Assembly: GCA_963833985.1 (NCBI GenBank)
Contig: CAWIAD010000001.1
Span: forward strand, 736,001 to 800,000
Direction of reading: 5' to 3'
DNA: 64,000 nt
Origin: an uncultured Planctomycetaceae bacterium
GTDB taxonomy: Bacteria; Planctomycetota; Planctomycetia; Isosphaerales; Isosphaeraceae
Part shown: positions 36,157 through 44,223 of the stretch, piece by piece
Numbering within the stretch: the stretch's first letter is position 1
Layout of the letters: every line of letters begins with the position of its first letter
Notes under the pieces: generated by a model
Database searches by the model: none
What the model was told of the DNA's origin: nothing
What the model saw: the letters and a program-made list of their open reading frames with translations, nothing else
Position numbers and translations under genes: made by a program

Positions 36157-37752
36157 TCATGCGGTGAACCAGCGCTCGAGGTAAGCGGCCAGTCGCGAGG
36201 GCGAGGTCCGTTCTCCTGCCACGAAGCCGAGGTAGCCGTCGGGCCTGACCAGGAACACCCCCGCCGCTGTACCGAAAGCGGATGCAAACGGCTCCCGCGC
36301 GGGGCCGTCGCCGGGTGACCTCAGCTCGACCACGCGGACCAGGTGGCTCCATTTGTCAATCGCTTCGGTGAACTCGGACGCCTGGTCTTTTGAATCGTCG
36401 GTCCGCACCACGAAAAGCGTCAAGGTTGAGGGATCGACCAGGCTTGCCAGCCGCACGTCTCGCCAGCCGGATCCCCCGGCGCCCTCGGCTTGCACCATCA
36501 GCTCCGGGACGCGATCGCCGGCGTGCAGGTGGCCGCCGTGCGCGTGGTGTTGTTCGGAGAGTGGTCCGTGGCGATAATTGATCGCGATCTGGCTCATCCG
36601 CGCCGGGGCGTTCTCACGTACCAGGGATGTGCCGCCAATCCAGGGACCGAGATGAGCCAAGAGCGCATGGACGATGGGATTGTCGCTGCCCATCAGGTCC
36701 GTCAGCCCCTCGGTCTTGCTCAGGACGTCGCGCATCACGGGCAGGCGTTCCTGCTCGTAGGTATCGAGCAGGGCGAGAGGTGCCTGGCCGCGGATCACCA
36801 GGGCCAGCTTCCAGGCCAGGTTGATCATGTCCTGGATGCCCGTGTTCATCCCCTGTCCGCCGGCCGGACTGTGGATGTGCGCCGCGTCGCCGCCCAGCAG
36901 CAGCCGCCCCACCCGGAGATGGGGAACCATCCGGCTGTTGATATGAAACCAGGAGCTCCAGGTGAGGTCGCGAAACCGCGCGGGGATGCTCGATCGCTGA
37001 TCGTAGACCGCCTGCACCTCCTCGAAACCTGGCTCTGTTCCGGCGGCCGGCGCGCCTGGAGGGTTGCTGGCGATGACGCGGAACCGCTCGCCTCCCAGGG
37101 GGAAGACCGCCAGGATGCCGTCCCGGGAAGAGACGATCTGGATCTGATCGCGCGCGAGATCGCCCTCGCAGCTCACGTCGGCCAGGAGATACCGGTTGTC
37201 GAGTGTCTTGCCCTCGAACGGCAGGTCGAGCGTGGCCCGGACCGTGCTATGCGCCCCCTCCGCCGAGATCAGCCACGAGGCCTCCATGAGCTCGAGCCCG
37301 CCGCCTTCATGCCGCAATGCCGCCCTGACGGGGGGAGCACCGTGCGACAGCGTATCCTGGGCCAGGCCGACAAGCTCGACCCCGCGCTCGATGGCCATCC
37401 CCTGCCGCTCGACCGCCTCGCCAAGCACACGCTCGGTCTCGGACTGGGGGACGAGCAGGAGGAAGTTGTAGTGGCTGGCGATCTGGCTGAAGTCCAGATG
37501 CAGGATGGGGCGGCCATCCGCGAAGATCGAGCCGCCCGAAGCTCGATTTCCCCTCCGCACCAGCTCGTCCGCTAGCCCCCGCTGTTCCAGCAGCTCGAGC
37601 GTTCGCGCCTGCACGCCGATCGCCCGGGAAGTCTGCGGCGGACTGGCTTGTCGCTCGATGATCCGCGCGGCGACGCCGAGCCGGGAAAGTTCCAGCGCCG
37701 CGGTGAGCCCGGTGGGTCCGGCACCAACGATGAGCACGGGAGCCGTCATCAT
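36157..37752 (-). CDS. FAD-dependent aromatic monooxygenase (PheA/TfdB family)
   Basis: IVGAGPTGL, GDAAHIHSPAGGQGMNTGIQD, LVRPDGY. Confidence 0.93.
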   Translation of the reverse strand: MMTAPVLIVGAGPTGLTAALELSRLGVAARIIERQASPPQTSRAIGVQARTLELLEQRGLADELVRRGNRASGGSIFADGRPILHLDFSQIASHYNFLLLVPQSETERVLGEAVERQGMAIERGVELVGLAQDTLSHGAPPVRAALRHEGGGLELMEASWLISAEGAHSTVRATLDLPFEGKTLDNRYLLADVSCEGDLARDQIQIVSSRDGILAVFPLGGERFRVIASNPPGAPAAGTEPGFEEVQAVYDQRSSIPARFRDLTWSSWFHINSRMVPHLRVGRLLLGGDAAHIHSPAGGQGMNTGIQDMINLAWKLALVIRGQAPLALLDTYEQERLPVMRDVLSKTEGLTDLMGSDNPIVHALLAHLGPWIGGTSLVRENAPARMSQIAINYRHGPLSEQHHAHGGHLHAGDRVPELMVQAEGAGGSGWRDVRLASLVDPSTLTLFVVRTDDSKDQASEFTEAIDKWSHLVRVVELRSPGDGPAREPFASAFGTAAGVFLVRPDGYLGFVAGERTSPSRLAAYLERWFTA

Positions 37753-39204
37753 GGAAAACTCCGCGAAAGGTCTTACGATCCTCGTCTCGCGATCCCTTGA
37801 TAATGGATTCTTTGCGTCATGAATCCACACAGCCCGCCGTGCTTCAAGGTCGTCGTTCCCTATCGTCAGGCCGGAGTTCGCGTGCTAAGCAGGTTCGCAA
37901 TGGTTCTTTGACAGGCATTCAGTGGGTTGATGCGATCCTGGATGACCGGGAGGCCGCTCTTTGTGGGACACGACTCCCGTGCGCCGTGGAAAGGTGTTGG
38001 TCTTCAGTGGGTGTAACTCCCACCCGGCAACTGGGTCGCTCCAGCCGGTAGCTATCGGAGCGGCGGTGGAGGAGACGAAACCGTCGGAGCCTTCGAGACA
38101 GATGTGTCGCTTGGCGATGCAGCGAACCGACAGGCCGTAACGCGAGTGAACGTTGAGCAGGCCTCGAAAAGTCCAATGTGGTCGCCGACCTTGCTGGAAT
38201 ATGGGGAAGGCCGCCGTCGCTGGGGATGAAAGGGAAACGGTTGGAATAGGCCGCCCCACGAGCGATCAGAACCCAGCGGGCCACCGGGGTATTGACGACG
38301 GCATGTCGGCACACGGAGATCAACACAACACGGGAAACCCCAAGCGGTGAGGGCGCGTGACCCTCAACCGGACGCCCGCGAGGGACCGGCCGGGCTGCCT
38401 GGGGTGGCGGAGAGGCCCGTAGTACCGTCGACGCCGGGTAACTCCGGTCGAGGGAAGGGGCCTTGGTTCAAGGTCAACGCAACAAGCGGCAGACAGCCGG
38501 GAGATTGGCGTGAGTCTATCACCTCCACTGAAGGTCGGGAAGTTGCAGACGGCGTTGCACACCAAAGCGAAGAACGCGCCCAACTATCGGTTCTACGTCC
38601 TGTACGACAAGATTTATCGACGTGACGTTCTGGGATTCGCCTACGAACGCTGCCGTGCCAACGGCGGCGCGCCGGGGATCGACGGCCAGAGTTTCGCCGA
38701 CATCGAGGCGTCCGGGAAGGAACGATGGCTGGACGAACTGGCGGAACAACTTCGTAAGGAGACGTATCAACCCCAGGCGGTGCGGCGCGTGTACATCCCC
38801 AAAGGGGACGGCAAGCAAAGGCCGCTGGGCATTCCTTGCATCAAGGATCGTGTGGTGCAGATGGCTGCGGTGCTGGTCTTGGAGCCGATCTTCGAGGCCG
38901 ACCTGGAGCCGGAACAACACGCCTACCGCCCGGAGCGCAGCGCCCTGGACGCCGTCCGCGAAGTCGAACGGCTGCTCAAGACGGGGCACACCGAGGTGGT
39001 GGACGCGGACTTATCTGGATATTTCGATAGCATACCCCATTCCGAGTTAATGAAATCGGCGTCACGGCGCATCAGCGACGGTCGCGTCCTGCGGCTGATC
39101 AAGATGTGGCTGGAAACACCGGTGGAAGAAACCGACGGGAAGGGGCAGCGCCATCGAACGACCCGGAATAAAGACCAGGGGATGGGTACACCGCAAGGTG
39201 CACC

Positions 39205-41223
39205 GATCACGCCCCCAACAATGTTGCAAAATCGTCCCTGATTCCTGACTCTGTCATTTCCAGATCGCGGCTTCGACCGAAGTACGGGCACGGATGGCAG
39301 CCCCGACTCGATCCCGATCCAAGGCAGGCTGGCGGCCGCGCTCTCGGAGAGGAGGAGTCGACATGATCACGTCCCCACGGAGGCCCACGTTCAGTCCTCC
39401 TGTCACCCGCCACTTCGAGTTCACTCGGCTTCAGGAGCAATTGATCGCGCGTGCATATCAGGTCTTGATCCCGGTCGTTTCGCAGCGCCTGGATCGGCCG
39501 CGACCCAGCCGCAACCACGCGACTGTGGTCCACACTATCCAGTCCAAGGTCGGGGGGGTTTGACAAACCATGATCACGGACAATCTCCGCGTGGCGCTCT
39601 ACGCCCGGGTTTCGGGGGAGCAGCAGGAGAAGGAGGACACGATCGCCAGCCAGCTCGAGGCGGTCACTCAGCGGATCGCCACTGATGGCTTGGAATGCGA
39701 GCCCGAACTGCACTTCGTGGACGACGGCGTCAGCGGTTACATCCTGGCCCGACCGGCACTCGAGCGACTTCGGGACCAAGCCGCCGCTGGAGCCATCGAC
39801 CGCCTCTATATGCTCGATCCGGATCGACTTTCACGCAAGTATGCCTATCAGGTCTTGATCCTTGAGGAACTTATCCGGTGCGGTGTCGAGGTCGTCTTCT
39901 TGCGCAACCCCGTCGGCCGCAGTCCGGAAGCCGACCTGCTGCTTCAGGTCCAGGGAATGATCGCGGAATACGAGCGCGCCAAGATCATGGAGCGTTGCCG
40001 CAGGGGCAAGCAACACGCCGCCCGCCGCGGTTCGGTCAACGTCCTCAGCGGCGCGCCGTACGGCTACCGTTACATCGGCAAGCACGAGGGAGGTGGCGAG
40101 GCGCGTTATCAGGTCCTCGCTGAAGAGTCCCGGGTCGTGCGGAAGATCTTCGAATGGGTGGGTCAGGAACGGTGCTCGATCGGCGAGGTGTGCCGACGCC
40201 TCCGGCGCGACAGTATCCCGACGCGGACCGGGAAATCGGCCTGGGATCGCGCGACGGTCTGGTTGATCCTCAAGAACCCTGCCTACAAGGGGACCGCGGC
40301 CTTCGGCAAGACGCGCTCAGGTGAGTTCAAACCTCAACGCCTCCGCCCGCAGCGAGGCCGCCCCGAACACTCCCGGCGACCGGTCTCACGGGTTGATACA
40401 TCCTCGGAAGATCAAATCTTCATTGAAGTCCCCGGGCTGGTGAGCGAAGACCTCTTCCTGGCTGTCCAGGCCCAGCTTGAAGAGAACCGGCAACGCCGTC
40501 GCGACCGGCCCGGCGGTGGCCGATATCTGCTCCAGGGCCTGGTCGTCTGCAAGCGCTGCGGCTACGGCTGCTACGGCAAGCCGACGAGCCGAGCCGCGTT
40601 CGAGGGCAAGGGTAGGGTCCGCTACGCGTACTACCGTTGCACGGGCTCTGACGCCTATCGTTTCGGCGGGCAGCGCCTCTGCTGGAACAAGCAGATCCGC
40701 ACCGATATCCTTGACGCTGCCGTCTGGGAGGACTTACGAGGTCTCCTGTCCGAGCCGGAGCGGGTCCGGGAGGAGTACGAGCGGCGGCTGCAGGGTGCCC
40801 AGGGCGGGCCGAATCAGGAGGTGGAGCATCTCGGCAAATTGATAAATAATGTGAAAAAGATGATTTCTCGATTAATCGATGCTTACGGCGACGGGTTGCT
40901 CGACAAATCGGAGTTCGAGCCCCGGATCTCGGCGGCAAGGACGCGCCTCTCGAGATTGGCGGAGGAGCATCGACAACGAATCGGCGAGGCCGCCCAAGAG
41001 GCGGAATTGCGACTGGTGATCGGTCAGTTGGAGGAGTTCGCACGTCGCGTCTCGCAAGGGTTGCAAGAGCCGGACTGGGCCACGCGACGGGAGGTGGTTC
41101 GGGCCTTGGTGAAGAAGGTCGAGATCGACGAGCAGGAGGTCCGCATCGTGTATCGGGTCAGTCCGTCCCCTTTTGAGAAAGGCCCCCAACAACGTAGTTC
41201 GCAACATTGTTGGGGGCGTGATC
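39205..41223 (+). mobile_element. Large-serine-recombinase mini-element integrated in the intron RT gene
   Basis: Perfect 23-bp inverted ends GATCACGCCCCCAACAATGTTGC (39205-39227)/GCAACATTGTTGGGGGCGTGATC (41201-41223); GATC at both junctions; removal of 39209-41223 restores the RT frame. Confidence 0.92.
39363..39563 (+). CDS. 66-aa basic protein upstream of the recombinase (candidate directionality factor or regulator)
   Basis: RBS GAGGAGGAG before ATG 39363; RHFEFTRLQEQLIARAYQVLIP; stop 6 bp before the recombinase start. Confidence 0.7.
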   Translation: MITSPRRPTFSPPVTRHFEFTRLQEQLIARAYQVLIPVVSQRLDRPRPSRNHATVVHTIQSKVGGV

Positions 41224-41444
41224 TCACCATTGTTGTCCAACATCTACATGCGACGATTTGTGAAGGGATGGAAGACTGGTGGACACGAGCGGCGTCTGGT
41301 CGCGCGAATCGTCAACTATGCGGACGACTTCGTCATCTGCTGTCGCGGCACGGCCGAAGAGGCCATGACGGTGATGCGGAAGATGATGTCCAGGCTGAAG
41401 TTAACGGTGAACGAGACCAAGACGCGGCTGTGCCACCTGCCTGA
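39570..41444 (+). CDS. Large serine recombinase (resolvase + recombinase + Zn-ribbon + coiled coil); reads through the right junction
   Basis: ALYARVS catalytic Ser, DDGVSG, RPALERL, DRLSRK, APYGY, YLLQGLVVCKRCG...YYRC. Confidence 0.96.
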   Translation: MITDNLRVALYARVSGEQQEKEDTIASQLEAVTQRIATDGLECEPELHFVDDGVSGYILARPALERLRDQAAAGAIDRLYMLDPDRLSRKYAYQVLILEELIRCGVEVVFLRNPVGRSPEADLLLQVQGMIAEYERAKIMERCRRGKQHAARRGSVNVLSGAPYGYRYIGKHEGGGEARYQVLAEESRVVRKIFEWVGQERCSIGEVCRRLRRDSIPTRTGKSAWDRATVWLILKNPAYKGTAAFGKTRSGEFKPQRLRPQRGRPEHSRRPVSRVDTSSEDQIFIEVPGLVSEDLFLAVQAQLEENRQRRRDRPGGGRYLLQGLVVCKRCGYGCYGKPTSRAAFEGKGRVRYAYYRCTGSDAYRFGGQRLCWNKQIRTDILDAAVWEDLRGLLSEPERVREEYERRLQGAQGGPNQEVEHLGKLINNVKKMISRLIDAYGDGLLDKSEFEPRISAARTRLSRLAEEHRQRIGEAAQEAELRLVIGQLEEFARRVSQGLQEPDWATRREVVRALVKKVEIDEQEVRIVYRVSPSPFEKGPQQRSSQHCWGRDLTIVVQHLHATICEGMEDWWTRAASGRANRQLCGRLRHLLSRHGRRGHDGDAEDDVQAEVNGERDQDAAVPPA

Positions 41445-42017
41445 GGAGACGTTCGACTTTCTGGGTTATACCCTCGGCCGGAACTACGACCGACGAACGG
41501 GCCGATCCTACATAGGGTCACGCCCATCGCGGAAGAAGATCATTCGGCTGTGCAGCGAGATCAGTGCGATGACGACGCGCCAGACCACTGGACAGGACGT
41601 CGAGATGCAGATTGGTCGGATCAATCGCAAGTTCCGCGGTTGGTCCAACTATTTTCGCATCGGAACGGTGAGCCCAGCCTATCGCCAAGTCAACCACCAC
41701 GTCCGCTACCGGGTACGTCAGTGGTTGTGTGCGAAGTTCAAGGTGCCGGGTCAGGGGCTCAGACGCTACCCTGACAGATACCTGCACCAGGAGTTGCATC
41801 TTTACCAGCTGCAACGAACCTAGCCGCGATGGTTTCGTGAGCGAACGTGTGAACTCAACCGATGAGACAAGCCTTGTCCGAAAGCTGGATGCGGGAACAC
41901 CGCCCGTCCAGTTTGATGAGCGGGGTGTGGAAACGAGGCCCAGCCGAGCCATCGACTCGAGCCCACCGCGCCACACCTCGACTCTACATCTTGTCACTTC
42001 TTCGATCTGATGGAACC

Positions 42018-42085
42018 TGGAATGGCACGATGAGAATCGTACCCCACGAGAATGGAATGGCACGATTGGAATCGTACCCCACGAG
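42018..42085 (-). repeat. Two tandem GTGG-type REP copies
   Basis: TGGAATGGCACGAT(GA/TG)GAATCGTACCCCACGAG at 42018-42050 and 42053-42085; each has a GGCACGAT/ATCGTACC hairpin. Confidence 0.85.
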
Positions 42086-42368
42086 GAGAGCGGCCAGGCT
42101 TGGCTCTCAGCCCCGGGCAAGCGAACGGCCATCCTGTCCAAAGACTTCTGTGGATTTGCTGAGGCTTGCAAATCGCACGCCCGTCGCTGCGCAGCCCGAA
42201 GCGAGAAGCCTTGCAGGAGATTGGCGGGTTGCGCGGCGTTGACCCACCCTACGAATTTAGATCATATCTCAAGCAAATCAATGCATTATCCAGGACCTTT
42301 CGCAACCGTGCGGAAGCGGTCAAAATCATCGATGAAGATTTGTAGGGTGGGTCAGCGCAGCGCAACCC

Positions 42369-43815
42369 CATAGCGTCCAACTTAAGGAATTTGGCCTAGA
42401 AAAAAAGAAAGGAAGTCCTTAATCCAGTTCGCGTTGTATCGAGCAAGCGCGTCCTGGAAGAAGGAGCTTCCGTTGGGGATCATAAACAAGGTGGCCGTGT
42501 TGTTGCAATCGAGCTTGGGTTCGAAACTCGACGAGATCGGTCGTGCGACGGGCGTGATCCGGCGGCAACGAAAATTCTCGGGCGCGTCGCTGCTCAAGAC
42601 CATGGTTCTGACTGTGATGAAGACGCCTCGCCCCCATACCAACGACTTCGTCGCGACGGCGGCACTGCTGGGTGTGAACGTGACTGCCGAGGCGATCGAA
42701 AAGCGGTTCTCGGAGAAGCTCGTCGCGCACTTGCGCGCGGGTTTGGAACACGTGTTGGAGTCCGTCGTGGAGGCGTCGGCGGCCGGCGTGGCGCTGCTGG
42801 ACAAGTTCACCGCCGTCGTGATCGCCGACAGCACCACGGTGACCTTGCCCGACGAATTCGAGGCGGAATTTCCCGGCTGCGGTGGCAAAACGGGCAGTGG
42901 TAAGGCAGCGGTGAAAATTCAGGTGGCGTGGGAACTGCGCCGCGGTCAGTTGGAGAAGTTGGAGGTCCATCCCGGTCGTCACAGCGACGCCACGAGCGTG
43001 GACGTGGACGCACCAGTGGCCTCCGGATCGCTGACGCTCCGCGACCTGGGATACTTTTGCCTGGAGCGGTTCCGATCCATCGGCGCAAGGAGCTTATTGG
43101 ATTTCGCGTTGGCAACACGGCACGGCCGTTTTCGACGCGGAGGGGCGGCGATGGGAGATGCTGGCGTTTCTCCGACGGCAACCCGCCGGCATGCCGGTCG
43201 ACGTGTCGATCGCGGTGGGCGCGGCGGAGCGTCTGGGATGTCGGTTGATCGCCTTGCGAGTGCCTCCGGAGGTGGCGAACCGACGTCGGCAAGCGGCCTA
43301 CGAAAAGGCTCAAAAACACGGCCGCGTGCCCACGCAAGAACATCTGGACTTGTGCGACTGGACGATTTTCCTGACCAACTGCCTGGCCGCACTTCTGACG
43401 TGGAAAGAGGTCGTGGTCCTGTATCGGACGCGCTGGCAAATCGAACTGCTGTTCAAACTTTGGAAATCTCACAACCACCTCGCCGAGTCGCGTGCACACT
43501 GGACCAGCATGGAACGCCTGGCGTTGTTCTGGGCGAAACTGATCGGCGTGGTGCTTCAGCATTGGCTGCTCCTGACCGCGAACGCGGCCGATCCCCGCCG
43601 CAGCCACTGGAAAGCGGCCCGCGTCATCCGGAACTGGATGGAATCCCTGACCCGAGCGTTGGATAACATCGACGAGCTCATACGCACCTTGAGAGACATG
43701 GCCACGACGATCGCTAGCGTCGCTCAGAAGAAACGTCGGAAGAAACGGCCCAGCCTATTCCAACTCCTTTTGGATCCAGAACTTCTGGAATGGAATCCTT
43801 AAGTTGGACGCTATG
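42369..43815 (+). mobile_element. IS4 family insertion sequence (IS231/IS186-like CAT... ends)
   Basis: 20-bp perfect IR CATAGCGTCCAACTTAAGGA (42369-42388)/TCCTTAAGTTGGACGCTATG (43796-43815); flanking 20-bp near-direct repeat. Confidence 0.92.
42473..43802 (+). CDS. IS4 family DDE transposase (frameshift near 43085)
   Basis: IADSTTVTLP, LRDLGYF, YRTRWQIELLFKLWKS (YREK motif); stop codon lies within the right IR. Confidence 0.93.
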
Positions 43816-44223
43816 GGGTCAGCGCCGCGCAACCCGCCAATCGAGGGAGATTTGTAGGGTGGGTCAGAGCGAGCGCGGCCCACCAAACCCTCTGAGTGAT
43901 CCGTCGTAAACTTCTGGGATCTGGTGGGTTGCGCGGTGCTGACCCACCCTACCAGACTCGTTCTAAGCCAAGGGACACAACATCGAGGGGGTTTCGCGAG
44001 GGTGCGGAGGTGGTCAGAATAATTTGCGACGGCGTCGAGATTGCGGCGATGAGGCACTGGCTGCTTGCGATGCGAGGCCGCAACTCCTAAAACGAATGCC
44101 AATGAATTCAAGGCGATCGAAGGGACAACCCCCTGGGTGAGACCGGATATCCTGGCCAGGGGGTGGTCGCCGTGGTGGCTGAGTTGGTTCGTGCAGCAAA
44201 GGCAGGCTGCCGGGGAGAGACGA

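Follow-up and report, generated by a model that had tools for sequence, protein, structure and literature searches.

Why should the reverse transcriptase (RT) gene of a group II intron break off inside its most conserved motif and resume about 2 kb further on? The locus that raises this question lies in a 64,000-nucleotide (nt) stretch of the genome of an uncultured Planctomycetaceae bacterium (GenBank assembly GCA_963833985.1, contig CAWIAD010000001.1, positions 736,001 to 800,000), referred to here as the window. The sequence comparisons described below make it very probable that the intervening DNA is an element moved by a serine recombinase, with the RT motif of group II introns as its site of choice. 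The insert would thus be a minimal mobile element, similar to an insertion sequence (IS) and moved by its own large serine recombinase, and its natural site encodes G-T-P-Q-G-x-x-I/V-S-P-L-L-A/S-N.

A preliminary description of the window had the RT reading GTPQGAPI to 39208 and resuming with SPLLSNIY at 41224, the 2015 bp between holding only an open reading frame (ORF) of 66 amino acids (aa) and a large serine recombinase. ORF and Pfam scans agree on both points, with one half of the RVT_1 profile matched on either side (Table 1); the left RT frame enters the element after 39208 and reaches a stop at 39241. The host is recognizable as a group II intron from ribozyme domains around an ORF with RVT_1 and GIIM, a GTGCG start at 37979 and 13 copies with the same ends, the range of sequence common to these copies setting its limits; the insert apart, it is ~1995 bp long. 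The RT ORF lies between domains D1–D4 and D5, because one Rfam match precedes it and the other, to domain V/VI and below the gathering score, follows it. Deletion of 39209–41223 had been predicted to yield an uninterrupted 432-aa RT with YADD, and an intact intron copy was to be sought in the same genome. Two are present, at C2:2152285-2154279 and C2:1391320-1393314. Both contain an open 432-aa RT with YADD, and both read GCACCGATCTCACCA across the site, exactly the empty-site sequence that had been predicted.

Table 1. Features of the composite intron and of the element that it contains (window coordinates)
Feature	Position	Strand	Details
Composite group II intron (host)	37979..41988	+	5' GTGCG start; 3' end ...CTCTACA
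Intron domains I-IV, 5' part (Rfam group-II-D1D4-4)	38005..38145	+	98.9 bits; gathering score 49; E 9.8e-22
RT gene, N-terminal piece	38510..39208	+	Ends ...GTPQGAPI; RVT_1 profile 1-127 of 205 (Pfam)
Serine-recombinase element	39205..41223	+	2019 bp with GATC at both ends; net insertion 2015 bp; occupied and empty intron copies differ by exactly that stretch
Left terminal inverted repeat (GATCACGCCCCCAACAATGTTGCAAA)	39205..39230	+	26 nt; crossover AT at 39206-39207
Small ORF	39363..39563	+	66 aa and stop; no Pfam family; candidate accessory or directionality factor
Large serine recombinase ORF	39570..41444	+	624 aa; Pfam Resolvase, Recombinase, Zn_ribbon_recom
Subterminal hairpin	41182..41217	+	Inner, oppositely oriented copy of repeat core beside right end; 14-nt arms, 93% complementary, 8 nt apart
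Right terminal inverted repeat	41198..41223	+	26 nt; crossover AT at 41221-41222
RT/maturase gene, C-terminal piece	41224..41823	+	SPLLSNIY...YADD...GIIM and stop; RVT_1 121-205 of 205, GIIM (Pfam)
Single-nucleotide polymorphism (SNP), C in window	41238..41238	+	15 nt right of junction; synonymous TCC/TCA, Ser
Intron domain V/VI (Rfam Intron_gpII)	41880..41962	+	36.1 bits; under gathering score 40; E 2.4e-4

The assembly, of 10.16 Mb in two contigs, contains 11 full copies of the element, seven at 100% and four at 99.95% identity, and for that reason they are taken to be recent. Seven occupy the RT of the host intron in the orientation seen in the window and with identical junctions, two lie inverted at the same RT site (C2:1012719-1014737 and C2:2144980-2146998), and the remaining two are at unrelated sites; the starts of both contigs fall within one further occupied intron. 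The element fits the description of an insertion sequence, with its size, its inverted-repeat ends (the two 26-nt repeats are 96% complementary), its 11 copies and its lack of cargo. The difference between an empty and an occupied site is 2015 bp exactly; the target is not duplicated, and GATC is present once in the former and at both junctions in the latter. The preliminary description had itself raised the concern of misassembled junctions. Assembly artefact or chance juxtaposition can, however, be given practically no credence: both contigs do start inside a further copy of the composite repeat, as if repeats had troubled the assembler, but nine complete occupied copies with identical junctions lie inside long contigs, and the same junction motif recurs in independent assemblies of many organisms, including the finished sequences of Singulisphaera acidiphila (NC_019892) and plasmid pWW53 (NC_008275).

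The off-target copies locate the crossover. The intact one, at C1:1741772-1743790, has the junctions ...GGCGGC-AT-CACGCC... and ...GGCGTG-AT-GGTTCC..., and since the off-target junctions share AT alone with the RT site, the crossover is AT within GATC. Recombination had been placed at GATC in the preliminary description; it does fall inside that tetranucleotide but does not involve the whole of it. The junctions are those of a 2-bp crossover without duplication, the cleavage chemistry being assigned from family membership. The central dinucleotide is palindromic, unlike those of phage integrases, which sets the element apart from them yet is compatible with the same enzyme family. A palindromic crossover confers no directionality and so fits the occurrence of both orientations here and in relatives. 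The only other RT gene in the genome that is uninterrupted at the site (36% identical) matches well in the left arm (CCACAAGGCGGGGTT) but reads CT where the crossover would lie, a single case that fits a requirement for matching central bases.

These features can be combined into a scheme of movement. The excised element would be a circle, and the joining of its ends would create an attP of 52 bp, an almost perfect palindrome with AT at its centre. With dimers of the recombinase on both attP and attB (the RT site), the two sites would be cut at the central AT, exchange partners and be resealed, inserting 2015 bp without target duplication, and the reverse reaction would restore the RT exactly. 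Because AT is self-complementary, insertion could take place in either orientation. As a target, the RT site would have much to recommend it: it is held constant by selection on the protein, is present in multiple copies, can be hit without harm to the cell and moves with the intron. Here, the intron would have been entered at least twice, once per orientation, and the intron-plus-element composites would then have been copied to new sites as units. The most likely copying route would be retrohoming, with RT provided in trans from the two intact intron copies.

Preference for the RT motif extends well beyond this genome. Relatives of the recombinase at E <= 1e-60 are encoded in 30 of 121 genomes of the order (this one counted) and in 19 of 53 genera, many genomes carrying several copies. 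In GTDB representative genomes, 548 stretches encode a relative; among the best 80 of these, which were used here, the close relatives are from Isosphaeraceae and other Planctomycetota (e.g. Singulisphaera acidiphila, 82%), and those at 45–58% are from Chloroflexota, Alpha-, Beta- and Gammaproteobacteria, Acidobacteriota, Phycisphaerae and Spirochaetales. Several are on contigs of ~2.0 kb, as for collapsed repeats. The element ends are marked in relatives by the repeat core CACGCCCCCAACAATGTTGC or by variants retaining ACAATGTTGC. A 180-nt segment at each expected end was scanned for [TSAVC]PQG and SP.[LM][ASG]N, 21 loci that represented the same place fetched by two routes having been dropped beforehand. 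At recombinase identities of 69% or more, 33 of 41 elements had the RT motif at one or both ends; at 41–62% it was found for 31 of 59, with an IS256-type motif for a further three and nine at contig ends and not assessable; below 41%, all seven elements lacked it. Control segments 700 nt further out gave it in 4 of 198 cases.

The preliminary description had envisaged a two-gene integrative element specialized for intron RT genes, and the flanks of its homologues are indeed RT genes broken at the same codon. In six distant loci examined with Pfam, RVT_1 was present in all eight flank ORF pieces, broken at profile positions 111–130 of 205, and GIIM in all six downstream pieces, one of them with HNH in addition; one upstream piece also has RVT_N. 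Rfam group II intron domains, of classes D1D4-3, -6 and -7, were detected in 14 of 20 related loci. The RT flanks belong to at least 10 lineages from several phyla, are 25–80% identical to the RT of the window and are found in both orientations (21 elements inverted, 15 co-oriented). In the clade at 69% or more, 14 are inverted and seven co-oriented; in five, the two flanks are of one type, upstream in three and downstream in two, and a further seven show the motif at a single end. Distinct flanks (24 upstream, 23 downstream) agree only at codon positions 1 and 2, with the consensus GGnACnCCnCAnGG...AT...CC..T..T..C.AA. The target site is therefore defined by a protein motif, and the DNA that is recognized is kept constant by selection on the RT protein.

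One such relative has been in the public record for years. The TOL plasmid pWW53 (L158, NC_008275.1:75913-83510) carries a frameshifted homologue, 52% identical, inverted inside an RT of group II intron type (KGTPQGAV / VISPLLANIYLHYV) and beside the xyl/ben genes. Its annotation lists only 'recombinase family protein' fragments, and the split RT was recovered by our own translation. No paper dealing jointly with pWW53 and a group II intron was found, in a search that lay outside the original plasmid papers.

Not all relatives are in RT genes. When 78 recombinases were placed in a FastTree, the RT-flanked elements occupied a clade of 66 rows, of which 46 were scored as RT, with small groups sited elsewhere nested inside it. 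Three elements (L135, L139 and L140) split IS256-type transposase genes near the C terminus. The pieces are at 1564-2253 and 3930-4295 in L135 and at 1998-2384 and 3813-4271 in L139; Transposase_mut was matched in both loci (ending at profile positions 362 and 359 of 379, respectively), and L140 was assigned by motif only. They form a monophyletic trio with 50% identical recombinases and flanks VVGIFPNEEA / ITRLIGAILLE, from Azospirillum brasilense, an uncultured alphaproteobacterium and a Limnocylindria metagenome-assembled genome (MAG). An IS3-type rve transposase is split in Skermanella aerolata (L110), as are two diverged IS91-type (Y2_Tnp) genes in one uncultured deltaproteobacterium genome (L153, L154), and in a Francisellaceae MAG an element abuts the C-terminal part of an IS200-type (Y1_Tnp) gene (L112). 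Others are plain off-target insertions in sulfatase, Fic and ATP-grasp genes. Among plasmid relatives, four of seven annotated regions have clear inverted-repeat ends (L159, L161, L162, L165), and a Pfam scan of 20 flank pieces found no split mobility gene; L162 adjoins a complete IS110 transposase and L159 an RND adaptor gene. A preference for the mobility genes of other elements thus seems, from these flanks, to be present in several sub-lineages, not all.

A separate sub-lineage in genome G069 (L039, L073, L074, L075) has the repeat core GACGCC instead of CACGCC. Time and again its copies occupy a palindromic, non-coding repeat (...GCCCCCGGAGGGGGCGTC-AT-TGCATTAGCCTGGGGCGTCAGCCCC), whose left flank is similar to the element's own end.

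Several observations weigh against a strict preference for the RT motif. Two of the 11 copies in this genome share only AT with the RT site, and specificity is accordingly not absolute. Neither end has the RT motif in 8 of the 41 close and 16 of the 59 distant relatives. One off-target copy here and several junctions in relatives have GT, GC, CT or TT instead of AT on one side, representing either tolerated mismatched crossovers or later mutation of the junction. The flank census works with regular expressions for short peptides and takes in only the best 80 of the 548 relatives, and the recombinase tree is a FastTree with a midpoint root. Lastly, neither a circle junction nor an excision product nor inversion in situ was observed, short soil-metagenome contigs being the only public runs that contain the sequence. 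No circle joint and no 39208/41224 joint was present in them, none of them spanning the stretch and the best run containing 0.47 of the sampled words, and they are uninformative about excision in this organism. In the same contigs, loose ends at 39208 and 41228 continue into other RT-like flanks.

How the composite came to be so numerous is a distinct problem. The 13 intron 5' ends, one of them a decayed relic, are at different places, each in the same dispersed hairpin-like repeat (cgtgggacacgattcc before the intron and tcgtgtcac after it), and the intron copies are for this reason regarded as separate insertions. Position 41238 in the intron-copy alignment is C in all seven co-oriented copies and A in the two inverted and the two empty ones. 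Variable sites are few overall, but further derived SNPs are common to two pairs of copies within the C group. Serine-recombinase integration leaves flanking bases unchanged. By our arithmetic, nine independent insertions in random orientation would give such a pattern of SNP and orientation by chance in about 1 in 128 cases. It suggests that intron and element spread as one unit. Cargo in intron domain IV is tolerated, and the RT can be supplied in trans, in engineered introns; on the copy comparison, retrohoming is probably the means by which the composite spread. The earlier suggestion that the element could hitchhike on the intron thus gains indirect support from the shared SNP and is likely. 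Segmental duplication was also considered for the seven co-oriented copies and was rejected, their outer flanks being different.

Carriage by the intron has to be weighed against two other accounts of the same copies. The intron might have spread empty, an active element then filling its copies by separate integrations. The element is evidently active on its own, since two orientation classes and two off-target copies require at least four separate integrations; its copies are near-identical (99.95–100%), and most sites should be filled if a site-specific element is efficient, as is the case for nine, probably 10, of 12. We nevertheless consider this unlikely, because all seven C-type copies have one orientation and both occupied A-type copies the other, whereas a palindromic crossover would make orientation random at each event, as the mixed orientations of relatives illustrate, and no empty C-type copy is left.

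Alternatively, an occupied copy might have served as the repair template for empty ones, so that DNA-level gene conversion carried over the element and the nearby SNP with no RNA step. The dependence of the SNP and orientation pattern on one linked SNP and few other variable sites counts against carriage by the intron here, as conversion would yield the same pattern. Near-identical intron sequence flanks the element for ~1.2 kb and 0.77 kb, the shared SNP is just 15 nt from the junction, more distant SNPs vary among the co-oriented copies, and recombination between element copies does occur in relatives. At L059 and L060 (contig C63 of genome G011, ~15 kb apart and in opposite orientation), the flanks of two RT lineages are swapped, as after inversion of the intervening segment, and at L033, L041, L063, L066 and L069 the same type of flank, upstream or downstream, is on both sides; from these mismatched pairs it follows that recombination between element copies rearranges genomes. 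Conversion would, on the other hand, need at least six events over a 2-kb heterology within the short time set by 100% element identity, and all 12 sites would have to have been colonized beforehand; we consider it an unlikely explanation. Spread of the composite by retrohoming remains the account that we prefer.

The intron copies offer some further observations. Their target repeat is ~80–110 nt long, with hairpin arms of the type GTGGGACACGA...TCGTGTCAC and the intron in the loop, and occurs at about 40 places in the genome; in the window it occupies 37900-37978 and 41989-42100, directly upstream of a gene for an FAD-dependent aromatic-ring hydroxylase (36157-37830, minus strand). The relic intron at C2:4627216-4628493 has a deletion from the 5' part of the intron into the element; its element part is 81–88% identical and its intron parts 94–97%. 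The site may thus have held an element lineage that was older or different, but decay of the relic has gone too far for the association to be dated. At C2:2147541-2148825 the nesting reaches a third level: a 1.28-kb IS lies inside the 3' part of an intron carrying an inverted element. This IS, present three times in the genome, has a single long ORF (411 aa), and GGGCTCAGACGC is repeated on both sides of it.

A quite different reading, which takes up the excision-controlled switch of the preliminary description, is that the element is domesticated, its reversible excision or inversion turning the RT and intron mobility on and off to the benefit of intron or cell. There are precedents in the skin element in sigK and the fdxN element; the empty copies indicate that, in terms of sequence, serine-recombinase excision would restore the RT exactly, and the conserved small protein is a candidate directionality factor. 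The idea is unsupported, no excision junction or circle joint having been found in public soil-metagenome contigs, and we judge it very unlikely. The element is present in multiple copies, lands off target and is distributed over many RT lineages and phyla, with some relatives in transposase genes, a pattern that speaks for a selfish element and not for a switch tuned to its host. That the empty copies are excision products of the seven C-type copies was likewise rejected, as they carry A at 41238.

The enzyme responsible for movement has the architecture of a large serine recombinase: an N-terminal resolvase catalytic domain (PF00239, residues 8-155, E 3.6e-29) followed by the Recombinase domain (PF07508, 185-306, E 2.3e-19) and a zinc beta-ribbon (PF13408, 320-390, E 5e-10). 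An alignment of 27 family members shows no variation at catalytic-domain residues Y11, R13, V14, S15, D69, R86 and R89, and S15 is, by analogy, the likely nucleophile. Of the protein, 551 aa are encoded within the element, which holds no stop codon for that frame, and its tail is therefore set by context: the ORF is 624 aa long in the window, 598 aa in the inverted copies and 603 aa in the modelled circle, where the recombinase stop overlaps the ATG of the small ORF. The subterminal hairpin beside the right end has counterparts in close relatives, again at the right end; it may form a structure in RNA or provide the recombinase with an additional place to bind.

Translated searches place the small ORF immediately before the recombinase across the whole family, at identities as low as 21%. 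An alignment of 30 sequences from several phyla has R22, Y32 and P37 in every member and the core motif [FY]E..RL.......AYE.L.P, and in Microvirga and Acaryochloris plasmids it is annotated as 'hypothetical protein'. Its complex with the recombinase is weakly predicted, at a score of 0.57 (best of three controls, 0.00), with runs agreeing in at least 84% of contacts and a predicted local distance difference test (pLDDT) value of at least 70 for the partner. In the benchmark for such predictions, 116 of 157 solved complexes passed the mark, as did 2 of 215 mismatched pairs; only 18 of the 157, together with both passing mismatches, did so with scores at or below 0.60. That the 66-aa protein is an accessory or recombination directionality factor is no more than a reasonable guess. 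A 20-nt direct repeat, identical at 19 of 20 positions, links 39452-39471 in the small ORF (..AYQVLIP..) with 39842-39861 in the part of the recombinase gene for the catalytic domain (..YAYQVLIL..), and the conserved AY..L core of the small protein is similar to the latter segment.

A broader picture can be sketched, which we put forward as a possibility on the doubtful side of even. The element may belong to an old, phylum-spanning family of minimal serine-recombinase elements that are obligate parasites of other mobile elements, with sub-lineages re-aimed at mobility genes: mostly the RT of group II introns, but also IS256-, IS3-, IS91- and possibly IS200-type transposases. Here, a DNA element would have multiplied through an RNA intermediate, as cargo of an intron with a broken RT that borrows RT in trans, and the small protein would enable both insertion and excision.

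Elsewhere in the window, 42365-43819 is taken up by another insertion sequence, ~1455 bp long and bounded by 24-nt inverted repeats that match perfectly. Two overlapping frames, 42434-43666 and 43158-43802, share its DDE_Tnp_1 transposase between them, and the insertion sequence is within a palindromic repeat of the GGGTTGCGCGGCGTTGACCCACCCTAC type that recurs at 42219-42368 and 43816-43959.

In kind, the element is a large-serine-recombinase transposable element, whose lifestyle is unusual and undescribed in the literature searched. No description of a serine-recombinase element in intron RT genes was found in titles and abstract starts, ISfinder and subscription journals being outside the search, and the accessible part of one paper (PMC4853749) only mentions xisF-type recombinases. 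Where a selfish element has its mobility gene chosen as the landing site of another DNA element, and the catalytic motif at that, bacteria offer a clear case of a parasite of a parasite, and one that could limit the spread of group II introns or ride on it. If the retrohoming of the composite is borne out, group II introns can carry and multiply 2 kb of foreign DNA in nature. The family also provides compact (551-aa) serine integrases with a natural, well-defined site of ~40 bp, and the related enzymes that have apparently shifted sites are material for studying how large serine recombinases choose and change their targets. As for annotation, these split RT genes are now labelled as pseudogenes beside a generic 'recombinase family protein'.

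The known systems with which the element invites comparison share parts of its design. The clostridial transposons Tn4451/Tn4453 and Tn5397 are moved by the large serine recombinases TnpX and TndX, respectively. In them, as here, a large serine recombinase is the sole mobility enzyme, there is no target duplication, a 2-bp crossover is common to ends and target, and end joining gives a circular intermediate, which for the RT-targeting element is inferred. They are, however, 6–21 kb in size, carry resistance or conjugation cargo and have a non-palindromic GA crossover, whereas the element described here has 2 kb, two genes, near-perfect 26-nt inverted repeats, a palindromic AT and an RT motif as its target. 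We know of no preference on their part for a gene of another mobile element. The phage-type serine integrases and developmentally excised elements (phiC31, Bxb1, SPbeta SprA/SprB, skin SpoIVCA in sigK and XisF/fdxN) have the same domain architecture and integrate in conserved coding sequence that is restored exactly on excision, and the small factors of TP901-1 and SPbeta resemble the adjacent 66-aa protein in its possible role as directionality factor. Those systems are large and prophage-like, with one attB per genome and a directional, non-palindromic crossover; the attB of the RT-targeting element is multi-copy, lies within another selfish element and is used in both orientations.

Two further comparisons concern small or nested elements. 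The IS607 family is similar in being small and IS-like, with a serine recombinase and no target duplication. Its TnpA has an N-terminal DNA-binding domain, and there are no terminal inverted repeats and minimal target specificity, according to the accessible text of PMC6188088 and PMC4058570; on that description the present element falls outside the family, having an N-terminal catalytic domain, Recombinase and zinc-ribbon domains, inverted repeats and a specific target. The nested or chimeric elements, among them group II twintrons and IStrons (PMC4227781 for the latter), resemble it in that one mobile element resides within another and the two possibly share their spread. They are, however, RNA-splicing elements nested in or fused to a partner, whereas here a DNA recombinase element breaks the mobility gene of its host at a fixed codon.

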